From an uncultured Candidatus Saccharibacteria bacterium (GTDB lineage: Bacteria > Patescibacteriota > Minisyncoccia > Phycocordibacterales > UBA9988), in assembly GCA_964401135.1 (NCBI GenBank), contig CAYNXC010000001.1, positions 210,264 through 274,263 of the forward strand: 64,000 bases of DNA. Reading direction: 5' to 3'. Below, one piece after another: positions 30,298 to 46,016 of this stretch (positions are counted from its first letter, which is position 1; every line of letters begins with the position of its first letter). The notes beneath the pieces were generated by a model. That model saw only the letters and a list, made by a program, of their open reading frames with translations, was not told the origin of the DNA and searched no databases. A program made the translations under genes and the position numbers.

Positions 30298-32390
30298 AGG
30301 TACGAGAACATACACTCATTATAATCTCGCTCGGAATCGCCTTTCTTTCAATCTTTTTTGTAGGGTCGCTCACGGTACAGGCAGAGGAACAAAGGGCAAA
30401 CGATAACAGTCTTATTCAAGCTGGTTTTGATTACGGCCCACAAGAAACAATTGCTCAAGAAATTATTAATGGTCGTGCCGAGAACGACCTCAAAGAGTGT
30501 GTCGCAGAAACAGGGAATACTACCTCGGGAGGATCATCCGGTGGCGACTATGTTCCCGTGCATGAAGTGGGGGAGCTCCTCTCGCTCACCACGGGCATCA
30601 ATAAAAAAGTAACGCACGGCAACGATCTCTTGGTAGATATCTGTATGCACTTAAAGGCGATACGACGCGTGCAGTATGTAATGGAGGCACAAGTGCTCTA
30701 CCATGACCCCAATGCGCGCAAGGCCGCGGCAAAGGCAATCTTTGAACACAAACAGTCCTTCATAGAGAACAACATTAAGAAGGGTTATGAAGTTTCTCCC
30801 GCACTCCTCGGTACCAGCGGGACAGAGAGTAGTTCGGAAAATAAGCAGCCGCTCTATGTGGCAAATATGGACGAGCACCTCAAGTCTGTACGCAGTGAGG
30901 CCTACGGAGTTTTTGATGCTGATTTAACCACACTCAACTCTTCAGCAAATCCAAATATCTTCACCGATAGCATCCGCAAAAATCTTGCAGTCTCTGAAGC
31001 AGCAGGGGAGAGTGAGGAATCACGATTGAGGACATCTCTCGGGTCTACTATCACGAAAGATGAATTCAACGCCTTTACCAACGACTTCTCACAAGGTGGG
31101 TGGGATATGTGGCTCAAGGTACTTGATCCACGCAACAACTACAGAGGCTCAAAAATTCTTGCACAGGATGAGCTCAATTATAGAAAGTCACTCGCAGAGA
31201 CAAACGCGAGAGAAGAAATTGCATCAGCAAAAGGATTTCTCCCTGTTCGTGAATGTGCCACAGAAAACTGGGTAACAACTGCTGATGGGAAGAAGTACTG
31301 TAGAAAGTGGACGGTCAAAACTCCTGGGACCATCAACGAGAGTTACCTTGCAGACATTGTCGGGTCAACTCTGCGTCAAAATGAGATAGCAGATCAGTCG
31401 GTGGAAGATTTTAGCAAGACAGAGTTTGCACGCGTAGAGAGTGAGTTAACTAACCTAGAAAAGGTGGGGAAGACGGAGGACAGAGTAGCAGTACAGAGCA
31501 TCTTCCAAAAAGAGGATCCATGCCCCGGACCAGGGCCTTGTGAAGATTCTGGCTGGGTGGGGAGTAGTGCAGGAGGAGGGATAGGCGGAGGAGGAGGTAT
31601 CACTAACCCAACAACACTCGCGCAACAAATTTATAACAATAAAAATACATTACCAGGTCTCCCTGATGGATTACAATCAATCTTCAACATCCCTGGACTC
31701 TCACAGGAAGCAATCATCAAACAGATTACAGAGTGGCTTAAAAAAGATACCAATGGAAATGGTACTCCCGACTACTTAGAGAGTGAGCCCCCGAAGATTG
31801 TCTTTACTGCCGAAACCAACTCCCTTGCAATTGCGGCCGATGCGGATAGAAACACCACAAAACTTACCTGGAATGCGTGGAATGCAACGGAGTGCAGTGC
31901 GGTCAACGACTGGTTGAGTGCAAGTACGATTACAAAATCGCGCGATACCAAGCTCGCCCCAACAGGGACGCTCACCGTACGACACCCATACACCTTTACC
32001 GTGAGTCTCTCTCGGAGTCCTGACTTAAGTGGATGGAGCACGGGGAGAGTAACGAGCGTGGCGGATCAATTTCTCCTCTCTCAAAAAACAACCATTGATC
32101 TCTCTGGTCTTACTGCCGCGTCGGGGTTAAGCTTCACCCTCTCACTTGGCACCAATGCCAACCTCACTGTAGTGGGAAATAGTTCAAATCAAAATCTGAC
32201 ACAGTCATTCAAAGAAGCGTATAACACACTCTCACAGACAGATGTGAATTATTCTGCTTTGCGTGGTAAGTACGCATTCACTTTTGATATCTCAAACAAA
32301 AAAATCTACATCAGTGCCAATCCGATATACAAAATCTCTTGCACGAATGCGAACAGTACAGAATATAAAGATGTAACGATTACGCGATGA
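30294..32390 (+). CDS. Large secreted or surface hypothetical protein (698 aa), T4SS-cluster associated
   Basis: Signal peptide, a Gly-rich stretch GGGIGGGGGITNP, and no recognisable family. ATGA overlap with the previous gene. Confidence 0.5.
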   Translation: MKVREHTLIIISLGIAFLSIFFVGSLTVQAEEQRANDNSLIQAGFDYGPQETIAQEIINGRAENDLKECVAETGNTTSGGSSGGDYVPVHEVGELLSLTTGINKKVTHGNDLLVDICMHLKAIRRVQYVMEAQVLYHDPNARKAAAKAIFEHKQSFIENNIKKGYEVSPALLGTSGTESSSENKQPLYVANMDEHLKSVRSEAYGVFDADLTTLNSSANPNIFTDSIRKNLAVSEAAGESEESRLRTSLGSTITKDEFNAFTNDFSQGGWDMWLKVLDPRNNYRGSKILAQDELNYRKSLAETNAREEIASAKGFLPVRECATENWVTTADGKKYCRKWTVKTPGTINESYLADIVGSTLRQNEIADQSVEDFSKTEFARVESELTNLEKVGKTEDRVAVQSIFQKEDPCPGPGPCEDSGWVGSSAGGGIGGGGGITNPTTLAQQIYNNKNTLPGLPDGLQSIFNIPGLSQEAIIKQITEWLKKDTNGNGTPDYLESEPPKIVFTAETNSLAIAADADRNTTKLTWNAWNATECSAVNDWLSASTITKSRDTKLAPTGTLTVRHPYTFTVSLSRSPDLSGWSTGRVTSVADQFLLSQKTTIDLSGLTAASGLSFTLSLGTNANLTVVGNSSNQNLTQSFKEAYNTLSQTDVNYSALRGKYAFTFDISNKKIYISANPIYKISCTNANSTEYKDVTITR

Positions 32391-34447
32391 AGCACTGCTC
32401 ACGGATAATTGCGGGGACACTCTTTTTTCTCACTATTTTTGTTTTGTTTTTTGGTGTAGTCCAGACAGTAAATGCTCAAGCCCCTTTACCAGTAATTCCT
32501 GGGTATAACGCTCCTGACACTCCTGAATGGCATGAGATAGCAAGAAAACAAAACACAATGGTAACAGAGTCAGTGGGAGGAGAAGGGGGATTGCTTTCAT
32601 TTCTTCTTCCCAGTTTCAGTGATTTAACAAATTGGATTGGGGATGTTATTTCAACCGCACTCATTTGGCTTGCTGGCAACTTCCTTTGGTTGGGCGGCAA
32701 ACTTCTGGATGCTTCCGTCCAATTTAATGTCTGCGATATGAAGAGTCTAATGGGGACGGCTGTTGTCTCCCAGGGGTGGCTTATCGCTCGTAATATCGCT
32801 AACTTCTTCTTCATCTTCATCCTCCTCTACATTGCCATCTCTATTATTTTAAATGTTGGAGAAAGTCAAAAGAGGTTAATTGTATGGGTCGTGATCATTG
32901 CGCTCGTCATTAACTTTAGCGCCGTGCTTACGCGCTTTGTTATTGATGTATCTAACATCTTTGCCTATCAATTCTATTCAAGCATTGTGGGGGGAGGGGA
33001 TCCGTGCACCGAAGAGAGTCGTAATACAACAGGAATTTCTGCTAATTATATGACTGCATTGAAGTTTCAGAAATATGCAGAAGAAGAATCGAGCTCTGAC
33101 TCTCTCTATAAGGGTATTGAAGGATTTGGAGCAAAGACAGTGACAGGAATCATGACGGCAACATTTATTACCATCACTGCATGGAGTTTTATTATTGTCG
33201 CAGCACTAATGATTATCCGTTCCGCGGTGTTAATGATTCTTATTGTGCTCTCACCAATCGCATTTATGGGATTTATCCTACCACAAATAAAACAGGTAAT
33301 GACTAAGTGGTGGGGCGCACTTATTAGTCAAGCCTTCTTTGCGCCGGTGTACCTCTTCTTTGCCTACATCACCCTCGTCCTCGCTAAGGGTACTGTGGCA
33401 CTTTTTTCACAAGAGACTTTTGCCTCTGGATCTGAACAGATATTCAAAATCTTTTTGCAGTACTCAATCCTCATTACACTCATTGTCGTAGGACTCATCC
33501 AAGCAAAAAAGATGAGTGCCGCCGGCGGAGGGGCAGTGCAAGCGCGAGTACTTAAGTCTCTTGATTGGATGCGCGGACAAGCAACAGGAGCCATGGGACG
33601 CAATACAGTGGGGAGACTCGGCCGTCAAATCGCTGATAGTGATCGTGTTAAGAGATGGTCATCAGGCTCTGGTGGTATCTTAAAGAAAGCCGCGGGGATT
33701 CCTATTAAGAATGCAAGTGCTTCTATGGCTGGAGGGAAGTATGGTGGCGGGAAGAGTTACGATGATATTGTTAAGAAGCAAATTGAACGGGCAAAGGGAA
33801 TTGAAGACCCTGCAGATAAAGCGCGCGTCTTGGGAGGAATGAGTACTGCCGCGCGCAGAGAGTACTTTGATAGTCTCTCTGACCGTGAGAAAGCAGAGAC
33901 ACTTGATGCGGCAAAGACTCTCGGGGGCTTCACGCAAGCACGGGTAGAAGGACAGCGTGAGCGACTTACCGCAGAGCAGGTTGAAAAAATGGAGAAGGCA
34001 GGTGGAGAGGGGAAGGATGCTACACGCAAAAAAGAGCAATCCGCAGATATTGAAGCAGTGGTTGGTAATACAGAAAAAGGTATAGCTGGTCTACCAAGAG
34101 GTTCAGACGAGAGAAGAATTAAGATTGAAAAGGTGGTCACAGGACTTAAAGATGATGAGGGACGCAAACTGGCAAAGATTGTTGAAGATGCGGACACGAC
34201 CGACATTGCCACAATGTACGGGAAGATGAACCCACTTGATCTTGTAGACTTAATGGGGAAGGCTAAACTCTCAAATGATGCTAAAGAAAAACTACGAAAG
34301 GGGATGTTGGATCTTGGAGAAGATCACCCAACATTTATTGAGCTACACAGTAATCCAAAATTAAAGATCCTCTTTGGTAGTACACCAATAAACGCACCTA
34401 GGTCAGCACCGACTCCTGCTAATCCTCCAGGAACCACTACAGCATGA
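32387..34447 (+). CDS. VirB6/TrbL-like polytopic membrane protein (T4SS inner-membrane component) with a long hydrophilic C-terminal tail
   Basis: Signal peptide, then at least five or six TM helices in a TrbL/VirB6-like arrangement, then a charged roughly 250-aa tail. Start overlaps the previous gene. Confidence 0.5.
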   Translation: MKHCSRIIAGTLFFLTIFVLFFGVVQTVNAQAPLPVIPGYNAPDTPEWHEIARKQNTMVTESVGGEGGLLSFLLPSFSDLTNWIGDVISTALIWLAGNFLWLGGKLLDASVQFNVCDMKSLMGTAVVSQGWLIARNIANFFFIFILLYIAISIILNVGESQKRLIVWVVIIALVINFSAVLTRFVIDVSNIFAYQFYSSIVGGGDPCTEESRNTTGISANYMTALKFQKYAEEESSSDSLYKGIEGFGAKTVTGIMTATFITITAWSFIIVAALMIIRSAVLMILIVLSPIAFMGFILPQIKQVMTKWWGALISQAFFAPVYLFFAYITLVLAKGTVALFSQETFASGSEQIFKIFLQYSILITLIVVGLIQAKKMSAAGGGAVQARVLKSLDWMRGQATGAMGRNTVGRLGRQIADSDRVKRWSSGSGGILKKAAGIPIKNASASMAGGKYGGGKSYDDIVKKQIERAKGIEDPADKARVLGGMSTAARREYFDSLSDREKAETLDAAKTLGGFTQARVEGQRERLTAEQVEKMEKAGGEGKDATRKKEQSADIEAVVGNTEKGIAGLPRGSDERRIKIEKVVTGLKDDEGRKLAKIVEDADTTDIATMYGKMNPLDLVDLMGKAKLSNDAKEKLRKGMLDLGEDHPTFIELHSNPKLKILFGSTPINAPRSAPTPANPPGTTTA

Positions 34448-34956
34448 ACACATTAACACCAGATCAGCTCCGTGAGATATACAACTCGCTCCCTGAGGAT
34501 CTTCAAGACGCAATGGGTTCGGCACAGACCTCAGAGACAGTACGCCGTATCAGCAACAACTACGGGCTCTCACTAGATCAAATGGGTGAACTTACAGAAG
34601 AGATTGGCCTCACTATGCTTGGTGTAAACACGCTTGAAGATATGCCAAAAAATATTGCGCTTCGACTTGGCACAGATCTCCCTATGGGAACTGCTATTTA
34701 TAGAGATATTAATGGGAGTATCTTCTTAAGGGTGCAGGGGAGCCTAAAGCAAGTACAGGAGCTCCGCGAATCCAAACCTCTACTTACCTACTCCATACAA
34801 AAGGAGAAGATTGTTCCACCTTCCTCACCAACCCCAGCCCCCGTACAAGCACGAGAACAAGCCCTCCCTCAAACACCACACACTGTACTAACTTCGCCAC
34901 ACACCCCAATGCCCAACAAGTCTGCAAATGATCCGTATCGTGAAATAATAGAGTAA
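34444..34956 (+). CDS. Hypothetical cytoplasmic protein, T4SS-cluster associated
   Basis: 170 aa, overlaps both neighbours by a few nucleotides. No motif recognised. Confidence 0.4.
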   Translation: MNTLTPDQLREIYNSLPEDLQDAMGSAQTSETVRRISNNYGLSLDQMGELTEEIGLTMLGVNTLEDMPKNIALRLGTDLPMGTAIYRDINGSIFLRVQGSLKQVQELRESKPLLTYSIQKEKIVPPSSPTPAPVQAREQALPQTPHTVLTSPHTPMPNKSANDPYREIIE

Positions 34957-35387
34957 TGGATTTCCAAGTACCACAATTTATTGAGATAGAGGACAAAATA
35001 TTCGGCCCACTCACCTTCAAACAGTTTGTCTACATTGCCGGTGGAGCGGGGGCGGCATTTGTGCTGTACTCAATTCTCTCTCAATTTCTTCCTTCAGCCA
35101 TCGCAATCATCATCGCTGTCCCCCTTGTTGGCTTGGGACTTGCGCTCGCATTCTATAAAATAAACGAGCGGCCACTCATTTACCTTGTACAAGCCGCGGT
35201 GCTCTATCTTCTTCGCGGAAAGCTGTACCGATGGAGAAAAGAAGAGTATCAGTTAGGAGAAGACCGGGTGAGTCTCCCTTCCGCGCAAAAAAATCCTCTA
35301 CAGGCAACGCCTGTTCGCGGCGACCGTCTCTCTGGTATTGCATGGAATTTAGATGTTCGCAAAGAGATCCCTACCGAACATACATAA
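34956..35387 (+). CDS. PrgI/VirB3-like small membrane protein
   Basis: KIFGPLTFKQF followed by two TM helices. Size and pattern fit the PrgI family of Gram-positive-type T4SS. Confidence 0.5.
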   Translation: MDFQVPQFIEIEDKIFGPLTFKQFVYIAGGAGAAFVLYSILSQFLPSAIAIIIAVPLVGLGLALAFYKINERPLIYLVQAAVLYLLRGKLYRWRKEEYQLGEDRVSLPSAQKNPLQATPVRGDRLSGIAWNLDVRKEIPTEHT

Positions 35388-35390
35388 GCT

Positions 35391-36050
35391 ATGGCAACAA
35401 AACAAGCAAACGCTTCACAAAAATTTCTCCCTATCCGCGAAATACGCGATAGTGTTGTGGTACTCTCTGATGGTGGAATGCGTATGGCCTTAATGGCCTC
35501 GTCTCTTAACTTTGCACTGAAATCACAAGACGAACAGATGGCAATACTACTCCAGTTTCAAAATTTTTTAAATGCTCTTGATTTTCATATTGAGTTTTTC
35601 ATAGAATCTCGCCGCTTGGACATACGACCCTACCTGCGCATCCTTGAGGACCGTATGAAGGAGCAGGTCAACGATCTGGTAAAAATACAAACCAAAGAGT
35701 ATCTGGACTTTGTGCGCAGTTTTACTGAGAGTACCAATGTGATGTCTAAATCATTCTTTGTGGTAGTGCCCTACAGTCCTCCAATCATCCAGAACTCAAG
35801 TGGATTTTTTGGGAAAATGTTTAATCGGGATAAAACTAATACTCAAGCTCTAGATGAGAGTGCATTTGAAGAACATCGGACACAACTTGAACAGCGTTCG
35901 TATGTCGTTGCACAGGGACTTGCCGCGTTCGGAGTACGATCAGTCATCCTTGGTACCGATGAGCTGGTAGAGCTCTATTACAAATTATTTAACCCCGGAG
36001 AGAAGGATGCGCCACAACCGGGAAGCTACACCAACAATGCCTCTGTTTAA
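35391..36050 (+). CDS. VirB4-like N-terminal domain as a separate ORF (possible split or frameshifted virB4)
   Basis: Immediately precedes, and overlaps in another frame, the VirB4 ATPase ORF. Size of about 219 aa matches the VirB4 N-terminal domain. Confidence 0.45.
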   Translation: MATKQANASQKFLPIREIRDSVVVLSDGGMRMALMASSLNFALKSQDEQMAILLQFQNFLNALDFHIEFFIESRRLDIRPYLRILEDRMKEQVNDLVKIQTKEYLDFVRSFTESTNVMSKSFFVVVPYSPPIIQNSSGFFGKMFNRDKTNTQALDESAFEEHRTQLEQRSYVVAQGLAAFGVRSVILGTDELVELYYKLFNPGEKDAPQPGSYTNNASV

Positions 36051-37875
36051 GAAAAAAGAAGTGTCTGAGGAGGAGGCAAGTGTCTCCGTCATCCCCCGTG
36101 ATTTTTATGAGGGCAATCAACTTTCTCTCAAGGATGTCATCGCCCCTGCTGCGCTCCAAGTTAATCCAAGCTTCATCAACATTGGCGGTAAGTACGCACG
36201 CACCTTCTTTGTTATCTCCTACCCTCGACAGTTAGCAAAGAGTTGGTTTAGTCCCATCATCAACCTTGACCGTGTGTTTGATATTTCTATCTATGTGCAC
36301 CCTATTGACACTTCGGTAGTCCTCCGACAATTACAGAAAAAAGTTGCCGAGGTACAGAGCCAAATTTCAGTACGAGAGGAGCGGGGAATGGTGCGTGACC
36401 CCAAACTAGACACCGCGTACCAAGATATAGAATTCCTCCGCGACCAGCTCCAGCAATCGCGAGAAAAAATGTTTGATGTGGGTCTCTATCTCACCTTTTA
36501 TGGAGAGAGCGAGGAAGAGCTCAACAAAACAGAATCGGAAGTAAAAAGTATGTTGGAGTCAAAACTGGTATATGTGAAGCCTGCTGTATTTCAACAAGAA
36601 GATGGTTGGAAGAGCACTTTGCCGCTCGGTATGGACTTACTCTCTGTACATTCAAAATTGAACTCCTCTCCACTCTCATCACTCTTCCCCTTTACCTCGT
36701 TTGACCTTACCAGTAACCAAGGGATCCTCTACGGCATCAACCGTCACAACGCCTCACTGGTGATGTTTGATCGCTTTTCAATGGAGAATTACAACTCCGT
36801 CACCTTTGCCAAGTCTGGATCGGGCAAGTCTTACGCCACCAAACTAGAGATCCTCCGGAGTCTTATGTTTGATGTGGATGTGATAGTGATAGACCCTGAA
36901 CGAGAGTATGAGTATATGGCGGAATCTGCAGGAGGGCGTTATTTTAACATTTCACTCACTTCAGAGCACCATATTAACCCATTTGATTTACCATTTCCCC
37001 GCGAAGATGAATCGCCTGCAGATGTATTACGGAGTAACATCATTAACCTCGTTGGGCTCTTTCGTATTATGTTGGGAGGCCTCACCCCTGAAGAAGACTC
37101 TATCATTGATTCTGCTATTACAGAGACTTACGCACTCAAAGATATTACTGCAGACAGCGATTTTACCGGAAAACCTGCCCCTATCCTCTCTGACCTTAAC
37201 CTCGTACTTGCCTCTATGGAAGGAGGGGAGTCGCTCTCACAGAGACTCAATAAGTACACTCAAGGCACCTGGGCGGGGTTCTTAAACCAACCAACCAATG
37301 TAGACATCAATAAAAAGTTTGTAGTCTTTTCAATCCGTGATATGGAGGATGAGCTCAAGCCTGTCGCAATGTACATTATTATGCACCATATTTGGAATGT
37401 AGTGCGCCGGACGCTTAAAAAAAGGATTCTAGTGGTAGATGAGGCGTGGTGGATGATGAAGGCAGAAGATACAGCCTCCTTTCTCTTCTCACTCGCTAAG
37501 CGCGGAAGAAAGTACTACTTAGGTCTCGCTACCATTACACAAGATGTAGGCGACTTCTTAAAGTCACCTTACGGGCTCCCTATGATTACCAACTCATCTA
37601 TACAAATACTCCTAAAACAATCGCCGGCATCTATTGATCTTGTTCAACAAACCTTTAACCTCACCGATGAGGAGAAGTACCTCCTCCTTGAGTCAGCAGT
37701 GGGGGAGGGAATCTTTTTTGCTGGGCTAAAGCATGTAGCGATTAAGGTAATCGCTTCGTACACCGAGGATCAAATCATTACCTCCGATCCTTCGCAGGTA
37801 CTCGCCATTAAAAAAGCGAAGGATGAACTGCGAGCGGCAGAGAGTGCTGGTCCCGTTGCAGGAGCTACGGCATGA
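36037..37875 (+). CDS. virB4: VirB4/TrbE/CagE-family conjugative transfer ATPase (C-terminal ATPase portion)
   Basis: Walker A FAKSGSGKSY, Walker B LVVDEAWWMM, and the overall VirB4 motor pattern. Confidence 0.8.
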   Translation: MPLFKKKEVSEEEASVSVIPRDFYEGNQLSLKDVIAPAALQVNPSFINIGGKYARTFFVISYPRQLAKSWFSPIINLDRVFDISIYVHPIDTSVVLRQLQKKVAEVQSQISVREERGMVRDPKLDTAYQDIEFLRDQLQQSREKMFDVGLYLTFYGESEEELNKTESEVKSMLESKLVYVKPAVFQQEDGWKSTLPLGMDLLSVHSKLNSSPLSSLFPFTSFDLTSNQGILYGINRHNASLVMFDRFSMENYNSVTFAKSGSGKSYATKLEILRSLMFDVDVIVIDPEREYEYMAESAGGRYFNISLTSEHHINPFDLPFPREDESPADVLRSNIINLVGLFRIMLGGLTPEEDSIIDSAITETYALKDITADSDFTGKPAPILSDLNLVLASMEGGESLSQRLNKYTQGTWAGFLNQPTNVDINKKFVVFSIRDMEDELKPVAMYIIMHHIWNVVRRTLKKRILVVDEAWWMMKAEDTASFLFSLAKRGRKYYLGLATITQDVGDFLKSPYGLPMITNSSIQILLKQSPASIDLVQQTFNLTDEEKYLLLESAVGEGIFFAGLKHVAIKVIASYTEDQIITSDPSQVLAIKKAKDELRAAESAGPVAGATA

Positions 37876-38198
37876 AGCGTCGGATCAGTAACACCACTGC
37901 AGGTCTCCTTATTTTAGGAACACTTATTGCGGAACTACTCCAAGCAGTGACTAACTTTATTGGGGTTGGCTTCGTCTTAAACCCCATCGTGAGCATATTT
38001 ATCTGGCTCACAGCATACTTTGTATTCGCTACACATAATGTAAGTGTGTTTAGCTCTCGTAAGCTCGCCGCGGCACTCACGAGCGCTACAATAGAGATGA
38101 TCCCTTTTATTGCGGTAATCCCTGCGTGGACACTCTATGTGATATCCATTATTGTTATTTCCCGCAGAGAGGATCGTATACATCATACCGATGAGTAA
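37872..38198 (+). CDS. Small three-TM membrane protein, T4SS-cluster associated
   Basis: 108 aa, hydrophobic, overlapping start. Possibly a VirB2/VirB3-like accessory. Confidence 0.4.
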   Translation: MKRRISNTTAGLLILGTLIAELLQAVTNFIGVGFVLNPIVSIFIWLTAYFVFATHNVSVFSSRKLAAALTSATIEMIPFIAVIPAWTLYVISIIVISRREDRIHHTDE

Positions 38199-38217: not shown

Positions 38218-39246
38218 ATGCGCTCCTTTCAATGGTACAATGTGCTCATGGTAAGATGCGCCATCTGTTTAATACTTCTCTTGTGTATACCAATGGGAGT
38301 GTCTGCGGCGATACTCAGTGGAGATGAGGGAGTCTCTGTGTCAGTCTCACCGGAGTACCCAGGTGCCGGAGAAGCTGTGACTATAAGTCTCTCGGGAAGA
38401 ACTTTTGATATCGATGCGGCCACTGTCACATGGACAGTAGAAGGAAAAAAAGTATTAGAAGGACCTGCTGAAAAAAATTATTCATTCACTACAAGTGAGT
38501 CCGGTGCAGTAAGTGCGATCACCGCAACAGTGCTCACGAGTGATGGCACCCGCTACCAAAAGGGAATAAGCATCAGCCCTTCGAAAGTAGACCTGATTTG
38601 GGAAGCACAAACCTATACACCACCTTTTTTTAAAGGGCACTCTCTTGCAAGTTCCGAGAGTGTAATCACCGTCGTTGCTCTCGCAGAGCTCAAGGGGGGT
38701 AACGGAACAAAAATACCTGCGAGTAAACTGATTTATAAATGGAGTAAGGATGGAAAAAATATCTCAAGCGCGTCAGGCTTAGGGAAGCAATCGTTTACTT
38801 TCACTGGAGCAAAATTATTTAATGACAATAAAGTAACGGTAAGTATTACTTCGCAAGACGGACTAGTAACAGCCGAGCGGAGCATTAGTATCCCTGTCTC
38901 TAATCCTCGTATTGTTGTCTATCCAGCTCCAGCGCTCTTAGGGACAGAGTATGGAAATGCACTCACGAACTCGTTCACATTACAAGAAGATGAGATGGGG
39001 GTCCGTGCGGTACCATTCTACTTTAGTACTACCGCAGTGGGGGCTCCTGCAACAAGGCTTGTATGGTCCTTGAATGGGAAAATTCTCCCCACAGAGCCTG
39101 GCTCAGATATGCTGGCAATATTACGAAAGGGGACGAGCGCTGGTACTGCTCGCATTAGAGTGGAGGGAGCGCACACAAGTAACCTACTCCAATCAGCCGA
39201 GTGGTCAGGAATAATTAATTTAGGATCTGGGACAAATACCTTTTAA
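38218..39246 (+). CDS. Secreted hypothetical protein (beta-rich, Ig-like repeats)
   Basis: Signal peptide MRSFQWYNVLMVRCAICLILLLCIPMGVSAA, then a repetitive beta-strand-rich sequence. Confidence 0.45.
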   Translation: MRSFQWYNVLMVRCAICLILLLCIPMGVSAAILSGDEGVSVSVSPEYPGAGEAVTISLSGRTFDIDAATVTWTVEGKKVLEGPAEKNYSFTTSESGAVSAITATVLTSDGTRYQKGISISPSKVDLIWEAQTYTPPFFKGHSLASSESVITVVALAELKGGNGTKIPASKLIYKWSKDGKNISSASGLGKQSFTFTGAKLFNDNKVTVSITSQDGLVTAERSISIPVSNPRIVVYPAPALLGTEYGNALTNSFTLQEDEMGVRAVPFYFSTTAVGAPATRLVWSLNGKILPTEPGSDMLAILRKGTSAGTARIRVEGAHTSNLLQSAEWSGIINLGSGTNTF

Positions 39247-39248
39247 CT

Positions 39249-40496
39249 ATGAAAATTATTCTTCACACACTCGTAGCATTCTCTATTTTTTCAAGCATCA
39301 TCACAGTTGCTTTTGCAGCAGAAGGGGGTGGTATTATTCTCTTAGAGCCGAGTGTGGTAAATGCGGGTGAAAATAGCCGAGTCCAATTTGGTCAGTATAT
39401 GTCAACGCTCTTTACCACCTTTATTACCGTAGCGGCAGTGCTTGCGGTACTTATGATTGTGATTGGCGGCATCCAATACATCACTTCATTCTCTGGTAGC
39501 GGTAAAGAACAGGGGAGGGTGCGCATTACCAATGCTATTTTTGGCCTCCTTTTGGCGGTATCTGCGTTCCTCATTCTCCAAACAGTGAATCCGGACTTAG
39601 TCTCGAGCGACACTCTCTCGCTTGATATTGGTAAGTTCTCTCCTATCACACAAAGTATTGCAAATGGATTATATAGCAAAGATGGAACTCGCGATGAGGC
39701 TCATGAGACTAAAGAAACAGATAAATCTGAGGAGGCCGCTGAATGGGGCCGTTGCACTCAAAATGGGTACAAAAAGTGTGTATGGATGGAAAATTGTGTC
39801 TCCATCGGGCCAGACAACCAACCTCTACCATATGTGGAAATACCAAAAAACAACTGTGACAAGCCGGCTATTGCGGACCAGATTGCCTCTTCTATATGTT
39901 GTGGAATGATAGATACTGAAAATAAAAAATATTATTTTATTAACACTGACGAAAGCTGTATTTCTTCTGCTTATAACAGCCTGAATGAATGTAACTCAGC
40001 AAAACCGAGTAACACTGCATGTAGGGATACCGAGATGACTCGTAGAGCCAACGAGACTTTAAATTACCCTCAATGTAGCAATCCTTCTGGGGGTAGTGAA
40101 GGGGGAGACACTTCAACAATTGGACAATGGCAGTATCAAACAGGGATTGAGAGACAAGCGGGAGACATGTCTAGCTCCGTTACTTCATTACTCTCCTGCA
40201 TGAGAGAGAAAATTCCTGACACATCTGTCGGGCAGATTTCTTCAATCAGTGACTCTAGACATATAGGAAACTTGTCTTCTTGTAATCAGGCAAACTGTAG
40301 TGGATGTTCTCACTCATGTAGATCTTGTCACTACGGGGGAGGAGTTTCTGGAGCTAAATCTATGGCAGTTGACTTCGGTGATGAGTGGAATAAGAAAAAG
40401 ATTATAAGTGCAGCAAGAGCATGTGACCCAGAGGCCTATATTCTTGACGAAGGGAACCATATCCACGTAAGCACAAGCGCCTGTCCTCGTGATTAA
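39249..40496 (+). CDS. Pilin-like (VirB2/TrbC-like hairpin) N-terminus fused to a Cys-rich C-terminal domain with a putative M15-like zinc-hydrolase motif
   Basis: Signal peptide plus two long hydrophobic helices separated by a short loop. C-terminal region has more than 20 Cys, SCHYGGGVSGAKSMAVDF and EGNHIHVS. Confidence 0.45.
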   Translation: MKIILHTLVAFSIFSSIITVAFAAEGGGIILLEPSVVNAGENSRVQFGQYMSTLFTTFITVAAVLAVLMIVIGGIQYITSFSGSGKEQGRVRITNAIFGLLLAVSAFLILQTVNPDLVSSDTLSLDIGKFSPITQSIANGLYSKDGTRDEAHETKETDKSEEAAEWGRCTQNGYKKCVWMENCVSIGPDNQPLPYVEIPKNNCDKPAIADQIASSICCGMIDTENKKYYFINTDESCISSAYNSLNECNSAKPSNTACRDTEMTRRANETLNYPQCSNPSGGSEGGDTSTIGQWQYQTGIERQAGDMSSSVTSLLSCMREKIPDTSVGQISSISDSRHIGNLSSCNQANCSGCSHSCRSCHYGGGVSGAKSMAVDFGDEWNKKKIISAARACDPEAYILDEGNHIHVSTSACPRD

Positions 40497-40504
40497 ATAG
40501 AACT

Positions 40505-41758
40505 ATGTCTTCCACTATTGTTAAAATTCTCTTCGGTCTCGCCATCGTCATACTCCTTTCCATTGGTGGGGGACTCATCTGGTACACACTCTTCTACCAA
40601 GCAGTGCCAGAGCCAATCAATACCGCGACAAGTTCTCCAGAGAATCTCTTTCCTGTTGGCGGAGAAGTAGAAGTAAGTACGGCAACCAGCACCGCAAGCT
40701 CTACACTTGGCGTGGCGGTAACAGGAGGAGGAGTAAGGGCGCGAGAGTTGCTTTCAAACCCGATCGCCGGATTTGGAGTATTTGGCTACTCAGCAACAAA
40801 TACGGTAGTTATTGCGGTGGATCGGAGCAATGGCCATGTGTACCGCATCTCTATTGCGTCTAGCACGGTTGAAAAAATCGCCAACACAACACTAGTAGGA
40901 GTGCAGGAGGCGTATGTAGGGGAGACTAAGAGCCTGTACTACATTATTTCTCGCTACGAGGCAAATTCAGGCTCACATACGCATATACAAAGCATTAAGA
41001 AGAGCTTGATAGCCATTACTGCAAGCTCAACAGTAAATTCGGGATCTCTACTCCCTCAAACGATCACGAGTATTGCTCTCTCCCCTAAACGAGATAGGTA
41101 TGCAACAGTGGTGAAGGGGAGTACTGGAGGGAGTATTGTATACATCACCGACTTTGCAACTGGGAAAAAACGGGAGTTGTACCGCTCACCACTTACTGAA
41201 TGGAATCTCCTCTGGCCCAACGAGAGTACACTCACCTTAGAGACAAAGGGATCATCTCGTGTACGAGGCACTCTTTTAAGTATCAACGCACAAACAGGAG
41301 CAGCGACGCGGATACTCGGTAATATAGCAGGGCTTACCTCACTTCCATCTCCCTCTCTCTCATACATCCTCGCTTCAGAGAGTAGAGATGATGGTGGAAT
41401 CAACCTATTCCGCTACACACCAAAATCGGGAGACCGAACACCACTCCCATTCTCTGTATTCCCTTACTGGTGTGTATGGGCACAAAAAACAGAAGGGTTG
41501 CTGTATTGTGCAGCTCCAGACACTATTCCTTCTGTACCCTTCCCCGACACATGGTACCGAGGGGAACTTTCTTTTAACACAAAAATATGGGAGTTTAATG
41601 TAAAAACAGGGGATAGTGAGATCGTGTGGAATCCAAATCTCACAGGGACTCTAAGAACAGAGGCACGGAACCTTGCTCTAAACTCTTCCGGGACACTCCT
41701 CTTCTACATAGACGACAATAATCTGACACTCTGGTCAGTGCGTCTCACTGATCTATAA
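40505..41758 (+). CDS. Membrane-anchored beta-propeller (TolB/WD40-like) protein
   Basis: N-terminal TM, then repeated beta-blade-like segments (ATVVKGSTGGSIVYITDFATGKKREL...). Confidence 0.45.
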   Translation: MSSTIVKILFGLAIVILLSIGGGLIWYTLFYQAVPEPINTATSSPENLFPVGGEVEVSTATSTASSTLGVAVTGGGVRARELLSNPIAGFGVFGYSATNTVVIAVDRSNGHVYRISIASSTVEKIANTTLVGVQEAYVGETKSLYYIISRYEANSGSHTHIQSIKKSLIAITASSTVNSGSLLPQTITSIALSPKRDRYATVVKGSTGGSIVYITDFATGKKRELYRSPLTEWNLLWPNESTLTLETKGSSRVRGTLLSINAQTGAATRILGNIAGLTSLPSPSLSYILASESRDDGGINLFRYTPKSGDRTPLPFSVFPYWCVWAQKTEGLLYCAAPDTIPSVPFPDTWYRGELSFNTKIWEFNVKTGDSEIVWNPNLTGTLRTEARNLALNSSGTLLFYIDDNNLTLWSVRLTDL

Positions 41759-41765
41759 GCGTATA

Positions 41766-42464
41766 CTACGCGTGGAGGCGTTTATAGCCCTGTTCGTAAG
41801 CAATAGAGAAGAGGGTGTTAGTAAGCCAGTACAGAGCAACTGCGGCAGGGAGGCCAGCTGATACCACACCAATCACTATCGGCATAATATACTTCATTTG
41901 GAACTGCAGACTTCGATTAAAATCCTCAGCAAACGAGCGTTCTTCAGTTTGATTTGGAGAGGATGAGGGGAGAGAGAGTTTTGTGTGAATAAACTGTGCA
42001 ATGGTAATAATTACTGCAAACACAATACTTTTTGCACCTAGATCAACACCAAGAAAGATGGCATTAACATACGATGGCGCATGAACAAATGAGTAGAGCC
42101 CGTACTTGAGAGACTCCAGACCATCCCGAAAGACAAGAAATAAGCCAATAAATATGGGTATTTGCACTAAAATAACGGCAAACCCAGCAAAGGGATTGAC
42201 CCGGTGTTCTTTATAGAGCGCCATGACGCGACGAGCCTCCTCTTCACGATTACCAACAGTGTCTTTTTTGATTTTTTTCAGCTCCGGTTCTATTTTTTTC
42301 AGCTCTTTCTGTGTAGATAGAGCTCTATTTTGGAGAGGGATAAGCACTATCTTTACCAGCACTGTAAGAACAATAATAGAAAGTCCAATACTATTCCCAG
42401 GGAGTACTCCTGTTAAAAACACGAGGGCATTATAGAGAGGTTCGGATATGAGTGTATGGAACAT
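41766..42464 (-). CDS. yidC: Membrane protein insertase YidC/Oxa1 (short form)
   Basis: Conserved YidC core LIPLQNRALSTQKELKKIEPELKKIKK...NPFAG. Position is downstream of rnpA. Confidence 0.85.
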   Translation of the reverse strand: MFHTLISEPLYNALVFLTGVLPGNSIGLSIIVLTVLVKIVLIPLQNRALSTQKELKKIEPELKKIKKDTVGNREEEARRVMALYKEHRVNPFAGFAVILVQIPIFIGLFLVFRDGLESLKYGLYSFVHAPSYVNAIFLGVDLGAKSIVFAVIITIAQFIHTKLSLPSSSPNQTEERSFAEDFNRSLQFQMKYIMPIVIGVVSAGLPAAVALYWLTNTLFSIAYEQGYKRLHA

Positions 42465-42471
42465 ACAGTGA

Positions 42472-42804
42472 CTACCTTAGCATATTCTTGATAGAAGTGA
42501 GAAGTTCATCTGTCTTCATCTTTAACTCCTTCTCACTCATTGTAGAGGGGTACGCAGTGAGACGGAGTACCATATCTACACCCTTGCCAATAAAATTATG
42601 TTGTTCAATACTCGTGTAGAGTATGCGTTTGACACGATGGCGATCAACAGAGCTCTTCACCACCACTTTTGGGACAACCACAGAGATTTTCGTCTCTGTG
42701 GAGGAGTGGGCAATGCGAATAGTAGTGAAAGGATTAGTGTATGTTAACCATCTTCTACGGATAGAAAAATCGGCCCTCTTCAGCCGATTTTTTTTAGGCA
42801 ACAT
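42472..42804 (-). CDS. rnpA: Ribonuclease P protein component
   Basis: MLPKKNRLKRADF.. basic N-terminus, between rpmH and yidC. Confidence 0.75.
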   Translation of the reverse strand: MLPKKNRLKRADFSIRRRWLTYTNPFTTIRIAHSSTETKISVVVPKVVVKSSVDRHRVKRILYTSIEQHNFIGKGVDMVLRLTAYPSTMSEKELKMKTDELLTSIKNMLR

Positions 42805-42815
42805 ACACAGTATGG

Positions 42816-42950
42816 CTACACAGCAAGCTTTTTGCGACCTTTTCGCATCCGCCGCAACAAAACACCACGCCCAGAAGAAGTCTTTGTTCTGGTAAGAAAC
42901 CCATGGGTCTTCTGCCTCTTTCTATTCTTTGGATTATAGGTAAACGACAT
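42816..42950 (-). CDS. rpmH: 50S ribosomal protein L34
   Basis: Own translation: [44 protein letters not shown] (44 aa). Below the ORF-track size cutoff. Confidence 0.8.
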
Positions 42951-43096
42951 ACGAATGGAGTATACAGAATGTATATACTTTTTTCAAGAGAATATACTTA
43001 TCCACCATAATCCACTCCTTATAAACATCTTGGATAGGTTTGTAGTTTAGTACTAAGAGTACTATAATCGCAACATAAAAATAACGAGCGGACCCT

Positions 43097-44440
43097 ATGG
43101 ACAACAAAGATCTTTGGGACAACGCCCTTGCGGAGATTGAAGTATATGTATCAAAAGCTAATTTTGGAACATGGTTTCGTAATACAGTAATTCTAAAGAC
43201 GGAAGGTGGGACAGTACATCTCGGAGTACCTAATGCTTTTGTGAAGGATTGGCTATCTAATAAATACCATCTTTCTATTCTTAAAGCGTTGAGAAATCAC
43301 TCTGAACAAATAAAGCATGTTGAATATATTGTTATTCGTGGAGAAAAGATAAAGATAGAAGAACTGCCAGTTAAACCCCTCTTTCGCGATCAATTAGAGC
43401 TATCTGAGTTGTATGTAAACAAAGAAGACAACTTAAACCCAAAATACATCTTTGATTCTTTTATTGTTGGACCATTTAACGAGACAGCATACGCCGCAGG
43501 ACAAGCAATCATTAAATCTCCAGGGACTACATACAATCCCTTATACATCTATGGAGGTACAGGGTTAGGAAAAACACACCTCACCCAAGCAATAGGGAAC
43601 ACCATCAAACAATTACACCCAAATAAAAAAGTTTACTACATTACTTCGGAGAAATTTGTTATCGAGGTAGTAAATGCAATTCAGAACAATAAAGCAAATG
43701 TATTCAAGGAAAAATATCGTAAGTATGATGTGTTTATTATGGATGATGTTCAATTTATTGCTAATAAAGATAAAACACAAGAAGAATTATTCCATTTATT
43801 TAATAGCCTATACGATCAAAATAAGCAGATTATTTTTTCATCAGATAAAATTCCAAAATATATACCAAACTTAGAAGAACGGTTACGATCTCGTTTTGAA
43901 GGTGGAATGATTATTGATATTGCACTACCAGACTACGAATCTCGCCTAGCAATATTAAAATCTAAGATAAAACAGAGTGATTTTTCTCCATCTGATGAGA
44001 TCATTGAATATGTTGCGTCAGTTATTAAGGGAAATATTAGAGAATTAGAAGGTGTTCTTAACTCTATTATTTGCCAATGCCAGTTAAAAAATAGAAATTT
44101 GAATTTGAGTGAGGTAAAAAACCTTATAAAAAATACCATAAAACCACAAAAAACCATCTCTATTAAGGATGTTCTTAAGATTATTGCTGGGTTTTATAGT
44201 ATTGATGAGAAGGTACTCTATGAAAAAACAAGGAGGAAGGAGGTAGTAAAACCGAGACAAATTATTATGTATATCCTCCGTGAAGATTTCAACATCTCTT
44301 ATCCTTACATTGGTCAAAAATTAGGTGGGAGAGATCACACAACTGTGATTCATGCATATGAAAAAATAAAAAAAGAAGTAAAACAGAATAATCTTATTAC
44401 ACAAGAAGTCGAACAAATACGGTCATTACTATACAACTAA
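43097..44440 (+). CDS. dnaA: Chromosomal replication initiator DnaA
   Basis: AAA+ Walker A GGTGLGKTHL, box VII, and the C-terminal DNA-binding signature KLGGRDHTTV. Confidence 0.9.
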   Translation: MDNKDLWDNALAEIEVYVSKANFGTWFRNTVILKTEGGTVHLGVPNAFVKDWLSNKYHLSILKALRNHSEQIKHVEYIVIRGEKIKIEELPVKPLFRDQLELSELYVNKEDNLNPKYIFDSFIVGPFNETAYAAGQAIIKSPGTTYNPLYIYGGTGLGKTHLTQAIGNTIKQLHPNKKVYYITSEKFVIEVVNAIQNNKANVFKEKYRKYDVFIMDDVQFIANKDKTQEELFHLFNSLYDQNKQIIFSSDKIPKYIPNLEERLRSRFEGGMIIDIALPDYESRLAILKSKIKQSDFSPSDEIIEYVASVIKGNIRELEGVLNSIICQCQLKNRNLNLSEVKNLIKNTIKPQKTISIKDVLKIIAGFYSIDEKVLYEKTRRKEVVKPRQIIMYILREDFNISYPYIGQKLGGRDHTTVIHAYEKIKKEVKQNNLITQEVEQIRSLLYN

Positions 44441-44657
44441 TATGTATAACTTGTGAATTATTAGTGAATAAAAAGTAGATAGTAAATTTTAAAAATAAAA
44501 AAATAAAAGATAATTCACTTACATACATACCTTATGTTCATACTATATCCACAATTCATAATAGTAAAAAATTAACACTAAACTCCTTTATAAGACTTAT
44601 CCACTTTATCAACAATACTAATAGTAATAAGTATTTAAAAAAAAGAATTTAATTATT
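44441..44657. other. Candidate oriC: AT-rich dnaA-dnaN intergenic region with DnaA-box-like 9-mers
   Basis: More than 80% AT. Contains ATATCCACA (44555-44563), TTATCCACT (44597-44605) and TGTGAATTA (44453-44461). Further boxes TTATCCACC, TAATCCACT and TGGATAGGT lie upstream of dnaA (42998-43039). Confidence 0.5.
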
Positions 44658-45752
44658 ATGAAAGTAGAATGTGTAAAAGAAAAACTAAAGGACGCATTAC
44701 TTACTGCTGATCGTATTACAGGTAAAAATTTATCGCTCCCCATCCTTTCTTATATTTATCTGCGAGCAATAAAAAATAAAATAATTATTAGATCAACAAA
44801 CCTTGATATTGGTGTTGAGATTATACTACCAGCAAAAGTAGTGAGAGAAGGACTAGTTGTTGTTCCTGGTTCATTACTTATTTCTGTACTATCAAATTCA
44901 ACCCATGAGATGATTACCCTTGAAGAAGTGAATGGTAATATAACAATTACTACACCAAATTTAAATACAATTATTAAGAGTGTCCCGAGTGATGATTATC
45001 CAAATTTACCTAAAAACGAAACAAGTGATGAGTATACACTACATACTTCACTCCTTACTTTAGGTATACAATCTGTTGTATTTGCGGCCTCATTGAGTGA
45101 TATTAAACCAGAAATAGCGAGTGTTTATATCTACTCTCACGACTCTCAATTATTATTTGTTTCGACTGATGGATTTAGATTGGCTGAAAAAAAGTTTCCA
45201 ATAAAATTATCACATGAATTTAAAGCCATTATTCCTTATAGAAATGCACTTGAAATAGCAAAGATCTTAGTTGGAAGTGATGAAGATTCTAAGATATTAC
45301 TCTCACCATCACTTATATCAATTCAAAGTGGGAACTATACTATTACTTCACGACTTATTGATGGGGTATATCCAGATTATCCACAATTAATACCATCATC
45401 ATTTTCTACTACATCAAGAATACCAAAACAGGACCTTGTAAACACATTACGACTCGCTCATATTTTTTGTGATAGAACAAATCAAATTCAACTTACTATT
45501 CAAGTGAGTGAAGCACTTTTTATGATTTATTCTCAAAATACTGAGAAGGGTGAATACTCGTCATCATTACAGTCAATTGTTGATGGTGAAGATCTACAGA
45601 TGAATGTTAATGTACGATATTTAGTGGATATATTATCCATTCTTCACAACCCAACAGTGTTTATTGGGTGTAATGGTCGTGGTAAGCCACTTTTTGTTCG
45701 GGATGATGGTGATAATTCTTTTCTATATCTTGTCATGCCAATGAATCGGTAA
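44658..45752 (+). CDS. dnaN: DNA polymerase III beta sliding clamp
   Basis: Position after dnaA, roughly 364 aa, three-domain clamp-like pattern. Confidence 0.8.
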   Translation: MKVECVKEKLKDALLTADRITGKNLSLPILSYIYLRAIKNKIIIRSTNLDIGVEIILPAKVVREGLVVVPGSLLISVLSNSTHEMITLEEVNGNITITTPNLNTIIKSVPSDDYPNLPKNETSDEYTLHTSLLTLGIQSVVFAASLSDIKPEIASVYIYSHDSQLLFVSTDGFRLAEKKFPIKLSHEFKAIIPYRNALEIAKILVGSDEDSKILLSPSLISIQSGNYTITSRLIDGVYPDYPQLIPSSFSTTSRIPKQDLVNTLRLAHIFCDRTNQIQLTIQVSEALFMIYSQNTEKGEYSSSLQSIVDGEDLQMNVNVRYLVDILSILHNPTVFIGCNGRGKPLFVRDDGDNSFLYLVMPMNR

Positions 45753-45755
45753 TGT

Positions 45756-46016
45756 ATGAACTCAATCTCTGATTTTTTAGGTAAATTTTCACAATTTCAA
45801 GATAATCAATCTCGGATAAAAAAAACGATATCCAGTATTATTCAAAATATATCAGGGATGGATATTCCTGAAACAAATATAGATATTATAGAAGATAGAG
45901 TCTATCTTAAGGTACACCCGGCTATATTAAATGAAATACTCATTCACAAATCTGTGGTGCTAACAGAAATTGAAAAAAAAACAAAAAAAATGTATAGAAT
46001 TATCGGCTTATCGTAG
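45756..46016 (+). CDS. DUF721-like small protein (possible DciA-like helicase-loader homologue)
   Basis: 86 aa immediately after dnaN, with a pattern reminiscent of DUF721. Weak support. Confidence 0.35.
   Translation: MNSISDFLGKFSQFQDNQSRIKKTISSIIQNISGMDIPETNIDIIEDRVYLKVHPAILNEILIHKSVVLTEIEKKTKKMYRIIGLS

Follow-up and report, generated by a model that had tools for sequence, protein, structure and literature searches.

A pilin-like hairpin fused to a predicted LAS-fold zinc peptidase domain, encoded in an origin-adjacent type IV secretion cluster of a Saccharibacteria genome

The window analysed here is a stretch of 64,000 nucleotides from an uncultured Candidatus Saccharibacteria bacterium (GenBank assembly GCA_964401135.1, contig CAYNXC010000001.1, positions 210,264 to 274,263 of the forward strand); all coordinates below are those of the window. 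At 39249..40496 on the plus strand it carries a genuine open reading frame (ORF), with an ATG start and 415 encoded amino acids, that joins two known kinds of module in one protein: a VirB2-type pilin belonging to type IV secretion systems (T4SS) and a peptidase-like domain assigned from structure models to the LAS (Hedgehog/DD-peptidase) fold, this domain representing a large, unannotated family. The gene is tightly packed between same-strand neighbours, 2 nucleotides from the upstream ORF and 8 nucleotides from the downstream one. The identical 415-residue sequence is already present in public assemblies, and homologues range from 98% to ~31% identity; with the 689 representatives of the C-terminal domain and the six invariant residues described below, this places the ORF beyond chance. 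A full-length AlphaFold model and homologue alignments divide the protein into five parts, which are listed here together with the two halves of the putative metal site (pLDDT, predicted local distance difference test).

39249..39317, plus strand: signal peptide, residues 1-23 (basic n-region, hydrophobic core, AxA site; the full-length model shows a helix at 2-19)
39387..39602, plus strand: VirB2-like pilin hairpin, residues 47-118 (helices 47-79 and 83-113; conserved NP motif; T4SS_pilin match)
39603..39740, plus strand: disordered charged linker, residues ~119-164 (pLDDT <50 at 123-142 and 155-164)
39741..40082, plus strand: lineage-specific Cys-rich middle domain, residues ~165-278, 10 Cys (pLDDT 72-84, strands and helices mixed)
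40116..40493, plus strand: C-terminal domain resembling zinc peptidases of the LAS (Hedgehog/DD-peptidase) fold, residues 290-415, 8 Cys
40311..40373, plus strand: putative metal site, first half (H355, S359-x-H361-Y362-G-G364, then 7 inserted residues, A373-x-D375)
40449..40466, plus strand: putative metal site, second half (E401-G-N-H404-I-H406, ExxHxH; aligns with NHVHVS of Desert hedgehog)

The Sec-type signal peptide, as read from the sequence, is MKIILHTLVAFSIFSSIITVAFA, with cleavage predicted after AFA and AE following. The two hydrophobic helices of the hairpin are joined by the loop SGSGKEQGRVR, which contains basic residues, and the hairpin is modelled with a pLDDT of ~90. A signal peptide followed by two hydrophobic helices and a short loop had been described in a sequence-only reading of this gene, and both the sequence and the full-length model bear this out. 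The same reading counted more than 20 cysteines in a Cys-rich C-terminal domain of ~260 amino acids. That region is indeed Cys-rich, but the entire protein contains 18 cysteines, between residues 169 and 412, and the supposed single domain is really a linker, a middle domain and a C-terminal domain of ~125 amino acids, the last modelled with a pLDDT >90 in the full-length protein. The linker differs in sequence and length between homologues. The middle domain has no Pfam match, and only some relatives align over the entire protein, others matching only at the pilin and C-terminal regions: ~20 homologues skip the middle region, matching the query only across its C-terminal ~125 residues and, in most cases, across the hairpin as well. 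In two close relatives (P0006 and P0011) the hairpin and middle domain match and the C-terminal region differs, and in other lineages the position of the middle domain is occupied by 3D or SLT domains.

On sequence evidence, the N-terminal module is a T4SS pilin module. Residues 51-112 score 28.3 bits with Pfam T4SS_pilin (PF18895), above the curated threshold of 26.6 (E 1.9e-6), which substantiates the earlier proposal of a VirB2/TrbC-like pilin; TrbC (PF04956) leaves the query itself unmatched. To gauge conservation, we used 132 diverse representatives carrying the C-terminal domain, at ~27-53% identity to the query, of which 111 match T4SS_pilin and 13 additionally match TrbC/VirB2. NCBIfam yields a weak match of the hairpin to a pilin-like protein of a Mycoplasma integrative and conjugative element. 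The hairpin is also 44-57% identical to the pilin modules of proteins whose C-terminal regions do not align to that of the query, and is therefore more conserved than a generic membrane anchor would need to be. A hidden Markov model (HMM) of the pilin built from the family found no second pilin in the 64-kb window, the fusion ORF being the sole match. In VirB2-type hairpins such as those of VirB2 and TraA, both ends lie outside the membrane, so the C-terminal fusion would be placed outside the cell membrane.

The C-terminal module is predicted to adopt the LAS fold. A model of the module on its own, built on 32 aligned sequences, has a pLDDT of 93 and a predicted template modelling score of 0.86, and shows a central antiparallel sheet against helices that can be superposed on known LAS members. 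Its top structural match is Hedgehog, and the full-length model returns the same top matches. Rather than a simple anchor followed by a domain lacking a zinc-hydrolase fold, the protein thus combines a hairpin that matches T4SS_pilin with a C-terminal domain that is LAS-like in the model. Exactly six alignment columns are invariant in all 132 representatives (H355, H361, Y362, D375, H404 and H406), and S359 (130/132), G363, G364, S371, A373 (130/132) and E401 (114/132) are strongly conserved besides. The motifs SCHYGGGVSGAKSMAVDF (residues 359-376) and NHIHVS (residues 403-408) are both present exactly as the earlier reading had quoted them, and the conserved positions follow the LAS pattern S-x-H-x-x-G...A-x-D plus [E]-x-x-H-x-H, extended by an insertion of 7 residues. 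Judged by these residues, the catalytic complement looks complete. Three cysteine pairs are conserved family-wide, the six strongly conserved cysteines being 317, 350, 353, 360, 392 and 412, and the number of cysteines is even in 124 of the 132 C-terminal domains, which fits a disulfide-bonded extracytoplasmic domain.

The C-terminal domain also contains a CxxCH motif (C357-R-S-C360-H361; residues 357-361, window 40317-40331), which overlaps the first zinc-ligand histidine. It produces weak Pfam matches to Cytochrome_CBB3 and Cytochrom_C550 (E 0.0056-0.2), which are far below the cut-offs and at chance level. C357 occurs in just 34 of the 132 members; this lineage-specific cysteine is found together with C345, pointing to an additional disulfide and not to bound haem. 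Given also the LAS fold, we rejected a c-type cytochrome-like haem domain as having virtually no chance of being correct.

The peptidase-domain family is, as far as profile matches define it, large, and it has no Pfam model. A search of 1.84 billion proteins with the domain profile yielded 689 representatives (clusters at 50% identity) at E<=1e-3 and 439 at E<=1e-10. Purpose-built HMMs detected the pilin module in 155 of 172 proteins with the peptidase domain; in these 155 the pilin is always N-terminal and the peptidase always at the extreme C terminus, and the linker between them varies from 12 to 331 residues across the family. In ~10 full-length members a signal peptide or single anchor replaces the hairpin, and the remaining members lacking a pilin match are one protein of 1,496 amino acids (P0183) and short sequences that are probably incomplete. 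Source annotations read 'pilin' or 'hypothetical protein', leaving the peptidase domain unannotated. The architecture, which the sequence-only reading had called unusual, does depart from textbook cases, yet it is common among Patescibacteria. Our literature search found no description of a pilin-peptidase fusion, although its coverage was incomplete and this absence is no proof.

Several relatives carry a second wall-related domain on the same polypeptide. An SLT domain lies between pilin and peptidase in 4 of the 132 relatives, including P0184 (pilin 116-175, SLT 234-333, peptidase 419-548), which is encoded inside a T4SS cluster downstream of virB4. In the Falkowbacteria group, the intervening domain is a 3D (MltA-like) domain, whose matches are weak but recur in four proteins (E 4e-4 to 0.02). 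P0183 has a glucosaminidase and the peptidase on one polypeptide, and PG_binding_1 and Lysozyme_like occur in single cases each. Because relatives fuse SLT, 3D, glucosaminidase, PG_binding_1 and Lysozyme_like domains to the same domain, we read the probable target of the peptidase as the cell wall. P0183 has no pilin hairpin; its six hydrophobic segments at ~613-750 precede the glucosaminidase (1228-1315) and the peptidase (1359-1476), and it may represent another kind of T4SS membrane component joined to this pair of hydrolases.

Other pilin proteins of Patescibacteria (P0006, P0011, P0040-P0047, P0050, P0052, P0055 and P0056) end in different C-terminal modules with LAS-like motifs. These take the form TGG[TS]E...H..G....D...HWH in P0040, P0045, P0006, P0011, P0041, P0042, P0050 and P0052, TEGYPP...CHY.G.C.D...HFH in P0044, P0046 and P0055, and S.HY.G.A.D...HVH in P0047. 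P0006 is 62% identical to the query over its first ~231 residues, a stretch that takes in the pilin and some of the middle domain, and has a different end of this kind. The resemblance of these modules to the query domain is at motif level only, their relationship being unconfirmed by hhalign (probabilities of 0.2-11%) and by phmmer against the PDB, which returned nothing.

The fusion gene is part of a T4SS cluster, which runs from a TSP3-repeat protein through a 698-residue protein, a VirB6-like protein, a 170-residue protein, PrgI, an ORF resembling the VirB4 N-domain, VirB4, a 108-residue membrane protein and an Ig-like protein to the pilin-peptidase and a 417-residue protein; yidC, rnpA, dnaA and dnaN come after it. 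The recognisable components and flanking genes are as follows.

32387..34447, plus strand: VirB6/TrbL-like polytopic membrane protein, weak (Pfam TrbL 4e-4, below cut-off; position kept in related loci L004 and L005)
34956..35387, plus strand: PrgI (VirB3-like; Pfam PrgI 7.8e-12)
35391..36050, plus strand: ORF resembling the N-terminal (TraC-like) part of VirB4 (NCBIfam VirB4_plasma 7e-8)
36007..37875, plus strand: VirB4-like T4SS ATPase (Pfam P-loop_TraG 6e-25, AAA_10, DUF87)
38293..39246, plus strand: Ig/PKD-like protein directly upstream of the fusion gene (weak BiPBP_C, PKD_3 and Ig_3 matches; co-occurs with the fusion in 7 related loci)
40505..41758, plus strand: 417-residue protein with a hydrophobic N-terminus, directly downstream of the fusion gene (conserved in L004, L005 and L009; co-occurs in 7 loci)
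41766..44440, mixed strands: yidC (minus), rnpA (minus) and dnaA (plus), the chromosomal origin region flanking the T4SS cluster (Pfam 60KD_IMP, Ribonuclease_P, Bac_DnaA)

This is the origin-adjacent, relaxase-less Patescibacteria T4SS that has been described previously (PMC12102498). Relatives at 68% and 34% identity (L004 and L005) share this gene order, as do further species among metagenome-assembled genomes of Vogelbacteria, Kaiserbacteria and Paceibacterota type, and the T4SS context is also conserved in L012. The orthologues of the VirB4 N-domain-like ORF in L004, L005 and L009 match the TraC-like family PF26593. The 417-residue downstream protein is a possible beta-propeller, with faint PD40/Tricorn matches in L009.

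Two features of the cluster merit mention in their own right. VirB4 is encoded as two ORFs that overlap by 44 nucleotides, a TraC-like one of 219 amino acids and an ATPase of 622. L004, L005 and L009 show the same split, which makes it likely to be real and not the product of a frameshift error. Directly after virB4, at 37872-38198, lies the 108-residue ORF, which has several hydrophobic segments and no family match; its counterparts at the same position in relatives have 109 and 118 amino acids, and it could be a small membrane component of the T4SS that has so far escaped recognition.

The closest fold relatives of the C-terminal domain are the zinc peptidases of the LAS/Hedgehog/DD-peptidase fold (MEROPS M15 and M74), among them the Streptomyces albus DD-peptidase, VanX, VanY, the phage L-Ala-D-Glu endolysins Ply500 and T5, MepA and the Hedgehog N-domain. 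In contrast to these, the query domain matches no Pfam family, has H-x13-D in place of H-x6-D, contains three conserved cysteine pairs and is nearly always fused to a pilin. Like VirB2/TrbC pilins (PF18895), the query has a signal peptide, two hydrophobic helices, a loop with basic residues and a place in an origin-adjacent T4SS cluster. However, described T4SS_pilin proteins have ~125-185 amino acids and no enzymatic domain, whereas the query, at 415, has ~300 extra residues including the peptidase, and its predicted mature form of ~392 amino acids is far larger than known VirB2-type subunits. It is also the only pilin in its cluster, whereas described pilins are one of an array, as in Southlakia epibionticum, the only species whose Patescibacteria T4SS has been studied genetically, where separate genes encode short essential pilins, SEML1_0014-0019 (PMC10633639).

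Patescibacteria T4SS are widespread and have VirB2-like pilins despite their descent from monoderm systems lacking them, and the single species tested cannot live epibiotically without its T4SS (PMC12102498, PMC10633639). No VirB1 is detectable in most Patescibacteria with VirB2-like pilins, and other hydrolases may replace it; VirB1-type hydrolases of monoderm T4SS, such as PrgK and TraG, combine a glycosidase with a peptidase (cited in PMC12102498). PrgK of pCF10 and TraG of pIP501 have SLT plus CHAP or LytM domains. Relatives of the query similarly join a glycosidase (SLT, 3D or glucosaminidase) to the peptidase, while the query itself has no Pfam match to SLT or CHAP; its peptidase is of another catalytic class than CHAP, and its tether is a pilin module instead of a plain N-terminal anchor. 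In Southlakia epibionticum, immediately downstream of virB4 lies SEML1_0007 (1,113 amino acids), which is scored as essential for epibiotic growth and which the authors' structure-based table credits with a C-terminal 'Hedgehog/DD-peptidase' domain at residues 951-1105, and the next gene, SEML1_0006, encodes lysozyme-like and cysteine-proteinase domains (PMC10633639, Tables S1/S2). As with VirB1-type hydrolases and this gene pair, the putative wall-degrading domain of the query is encoded inside a T4SS cluster.

We propose that the gene encodes a modular envelope protein in which a pilin hairpin carries a LAS zinc peptidase that opens the wall at the T4SS. The architecture and fold we hold with high confidence, and taken as a whole we consider the explanation probable, though far from secure. 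What we infer about zinc binding, substrate, topology, polymerisation and processing runs as follows. The protein would consist of a Sec signal peptide, a VirB2-type hairpin, a flexible linker leading to a middle domain rich in disulfides, and a zinc metallopeptidase at the C terminus. After export, the hairpin would sit in the membrane with the loop SGSGKEQGRVR in the cytoplasm and both ends outside, keeping the peptidase outside the membrane in the zone of the cell wall. We favour an extracytoplasmic location because cysteine numbers are even and a DsbA-like gene lies nearby in the Falkowbacteria-type loci, where it is found a few genes upstream (it was detected in 14 of the 41 related loci surveyed from species-representative genomes). 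Zinc would be bound by H361, D375 and H406, or H404, with E401/H404 and H355 completing the catalytic set. The most likely substrate would be the peptide stems or cross-links of peptidoglycan, and a peptidoglycan peptidase activity is, on balance, what we expect. It would supply a VirB1-like, wall-opening activity where the T4SS or its pilus assembles and crosses the cell's own wall or, if the protein is built into the pilus, carry this activity to the wall of the host cell beneath the epibiont. The fusion protein may polymerise, be a minor pilus component, be processed at the linker or stay in the membrane.

The specific T4SS role, which we draw in part by analogy with the essential SEML1_0007, is tentative and could easily prove wrong. 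The pilin-fused family of predicted zinc peptidases is a concrete candidate for the missing wall-opening activity and bears on the open question of how Patescibacteria T4SS cross walls without VirB1. The fusion itself links pilin and peptidase functionally in 'Rosetta stone' style, and H361, D375, H404, H406 and E401 are natural targets for mutation. An enzyme displayed on the pilus would make this the first VirB2-family pilin known with a catalytic domain and would suggest how ultra-small epibionts penetrate host walls.

A number of observations weigh against this proposal. The canonical zinc-ligand motifs of DD-peptidases are H-x6-D and H-x-H (PMC6027127), and although H-x-H is present here, the first spacing is H-x13-D because of the 7-residue insertion between H and D. 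Pfam searches matched no peptidase family, M15 and M74 included, and no HH_signal model, either among 32 domain members at E<=10 or among the 132 members at E<=0.01. Since the Pfam M15 models are unmatched, we regard the domain as a new family of the LAS fold rather than a member of M15; the modelled fold and the six invariant residues support the likeness to LAS/M15 peptidases noted in the sequence-only reading, with the spacing and the missing M15 match as caveats. Foldseek against the PDB found nothing for the C-terminal domain, and phmmer with the whole protein found nothing relevant there. The sole link at sequence level, from a profile search of the PDB, is to Desert hedgehog at E=2, where C-x-H-x5-HYxG aligns with HH-x5-HYEG and NH[IV]HVS with NHVHVS. 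Hedgehog, the top structural match, is itself no established enzyme, and the predicted model contains no metal. Nothing indicates that a pilin with a 300-residue extension can polymerise, and the middle domain has no assigned function. Nor is the T4SS link universal: only ~10 of the 41 related loci are in a T4SS/oriC context, and ~18, of Falkowbacteria type, lie inside a 2-oxoacid:ferredoxin oxidoreductase (POR) operon with no virB4 within 10 kb. The 'VirB1 surrogate' role suggested by the sequence-only reading is plausible, but only about a quarter of the sampled loci adjoin virB4. Overall, the structural claims of that reading are supported, and its functional claim we retain as a working hypothesis.

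This genomic distribution suits a different account, in which the protein is a housekeeping wall peptidase (a carboxypeptidase or endopeptidase) independent of the T4SS and the pilin-derived hairpin is a mere membrane anchor. In all, ~30 of the 41 loci have no virB4 within 10 kb, those in the metabolic POR operon among them, and the ~10 full-length members with only a signal peptide or anchor manage without a hairpin. Distance from virB4 is weak evidence, however, because the pilin genes of Patescibacteria are generally away from virB4 in ~40% of assemblies (PMC12102498). A mere anchor would also sit poorly with a hairpin that is as conserved as the catalytic domain and recognised by T4SS_pilin in most relatives, with the fixed position in the T4SS cluster in the query's lineage, down to relatives at 34% identity, and with the pilin-SLT-peptidase variant likewise located in a T4SS cluster. 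We consider this account unlikely, but serious. The metal site raises another question, namely whether the zinc cleft, as some have argued for Hedgehog, binds something like a peptide of the host wall and leaves it uncut, making the domain a non-catalytic binding module and the protein a pilus-borne adhesin. The retention of the expected catalytic residues H355, H404 and E401, and not just the metal ligands, speaks for catalysis, and fusions with bona fide wall glycosidases (SLT and glucosaminidase) point to degradation; we find such a binding role improbable.

The protein might instead be a precursor, cleaved in the linker during pilin maturation to release a free wall hydrolase by the machine and a short pilin that polymerises. 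P-type pilins such as TrbC of RP4 lose a C-terminal extension in maturation, and a parallel here would remove the problem of packing a 300-residue appendage onto every subunit; the disordered linker of ~45 residues between hairpin and globular domains would be a suitable site. We identified neither a protease gene nor a conserved cleavage motif, however, and linkers of such widely varying length across the family argue against it, such that we judge processing of this kind to be quite unlikely. A further reading is a 'catalytic pilus', built or decorated with subunits that each carry a wall-degrading enzyme, in which VirB2-like pilins with a LAS peptidase, SLT, 3D or glucosaminidase domain would digest a path through the host wall at the point of contact. 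This is speculative and we doubt that it holds, but if true it would introduce a new principle to T4SS pili and give these epibionts a direct means of breaching their hosts.

Aside from these considerations, the Falkowbacteria-type loci present an arrangement of their own. At L001:5537-11590, L003:6587-12342 and L006:5385-11611, pilin-domain genes are interleaved with the POR subunits in the order DsbA-like, POR gamma, ferredoxin, POR alpha, pilin, POR beta (TPP_enzyme_C) and pilin-peptidase. The set includes the pilin-3D-peptidase fusion and recurs in ~12-18 of the loci L011-L051. The arrangement is kept in many species; a cytoplasmic redox enzyme and envelope proteins make an unusual combination. 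Several contigs that bear this gene of Patescibacteria type (L019, L021, L022, L024, L025, L027, L033, L043 and L049) are labelled in public records as Gammaproteobacteria, Thermoplasmatales, Pacearchaeota or Bacillota, and because at least L033 also carries the dnaA, yidC and virB4 of the same cluster type, these labels are probably binning or taxonomy errors. Finally, the segment from dnaA to dnaN in the window (43500-45900) has a G+C content of 0.24-0.33, against ~0.46 elsewhere, despite its conserved housekeeping genes and synteny.

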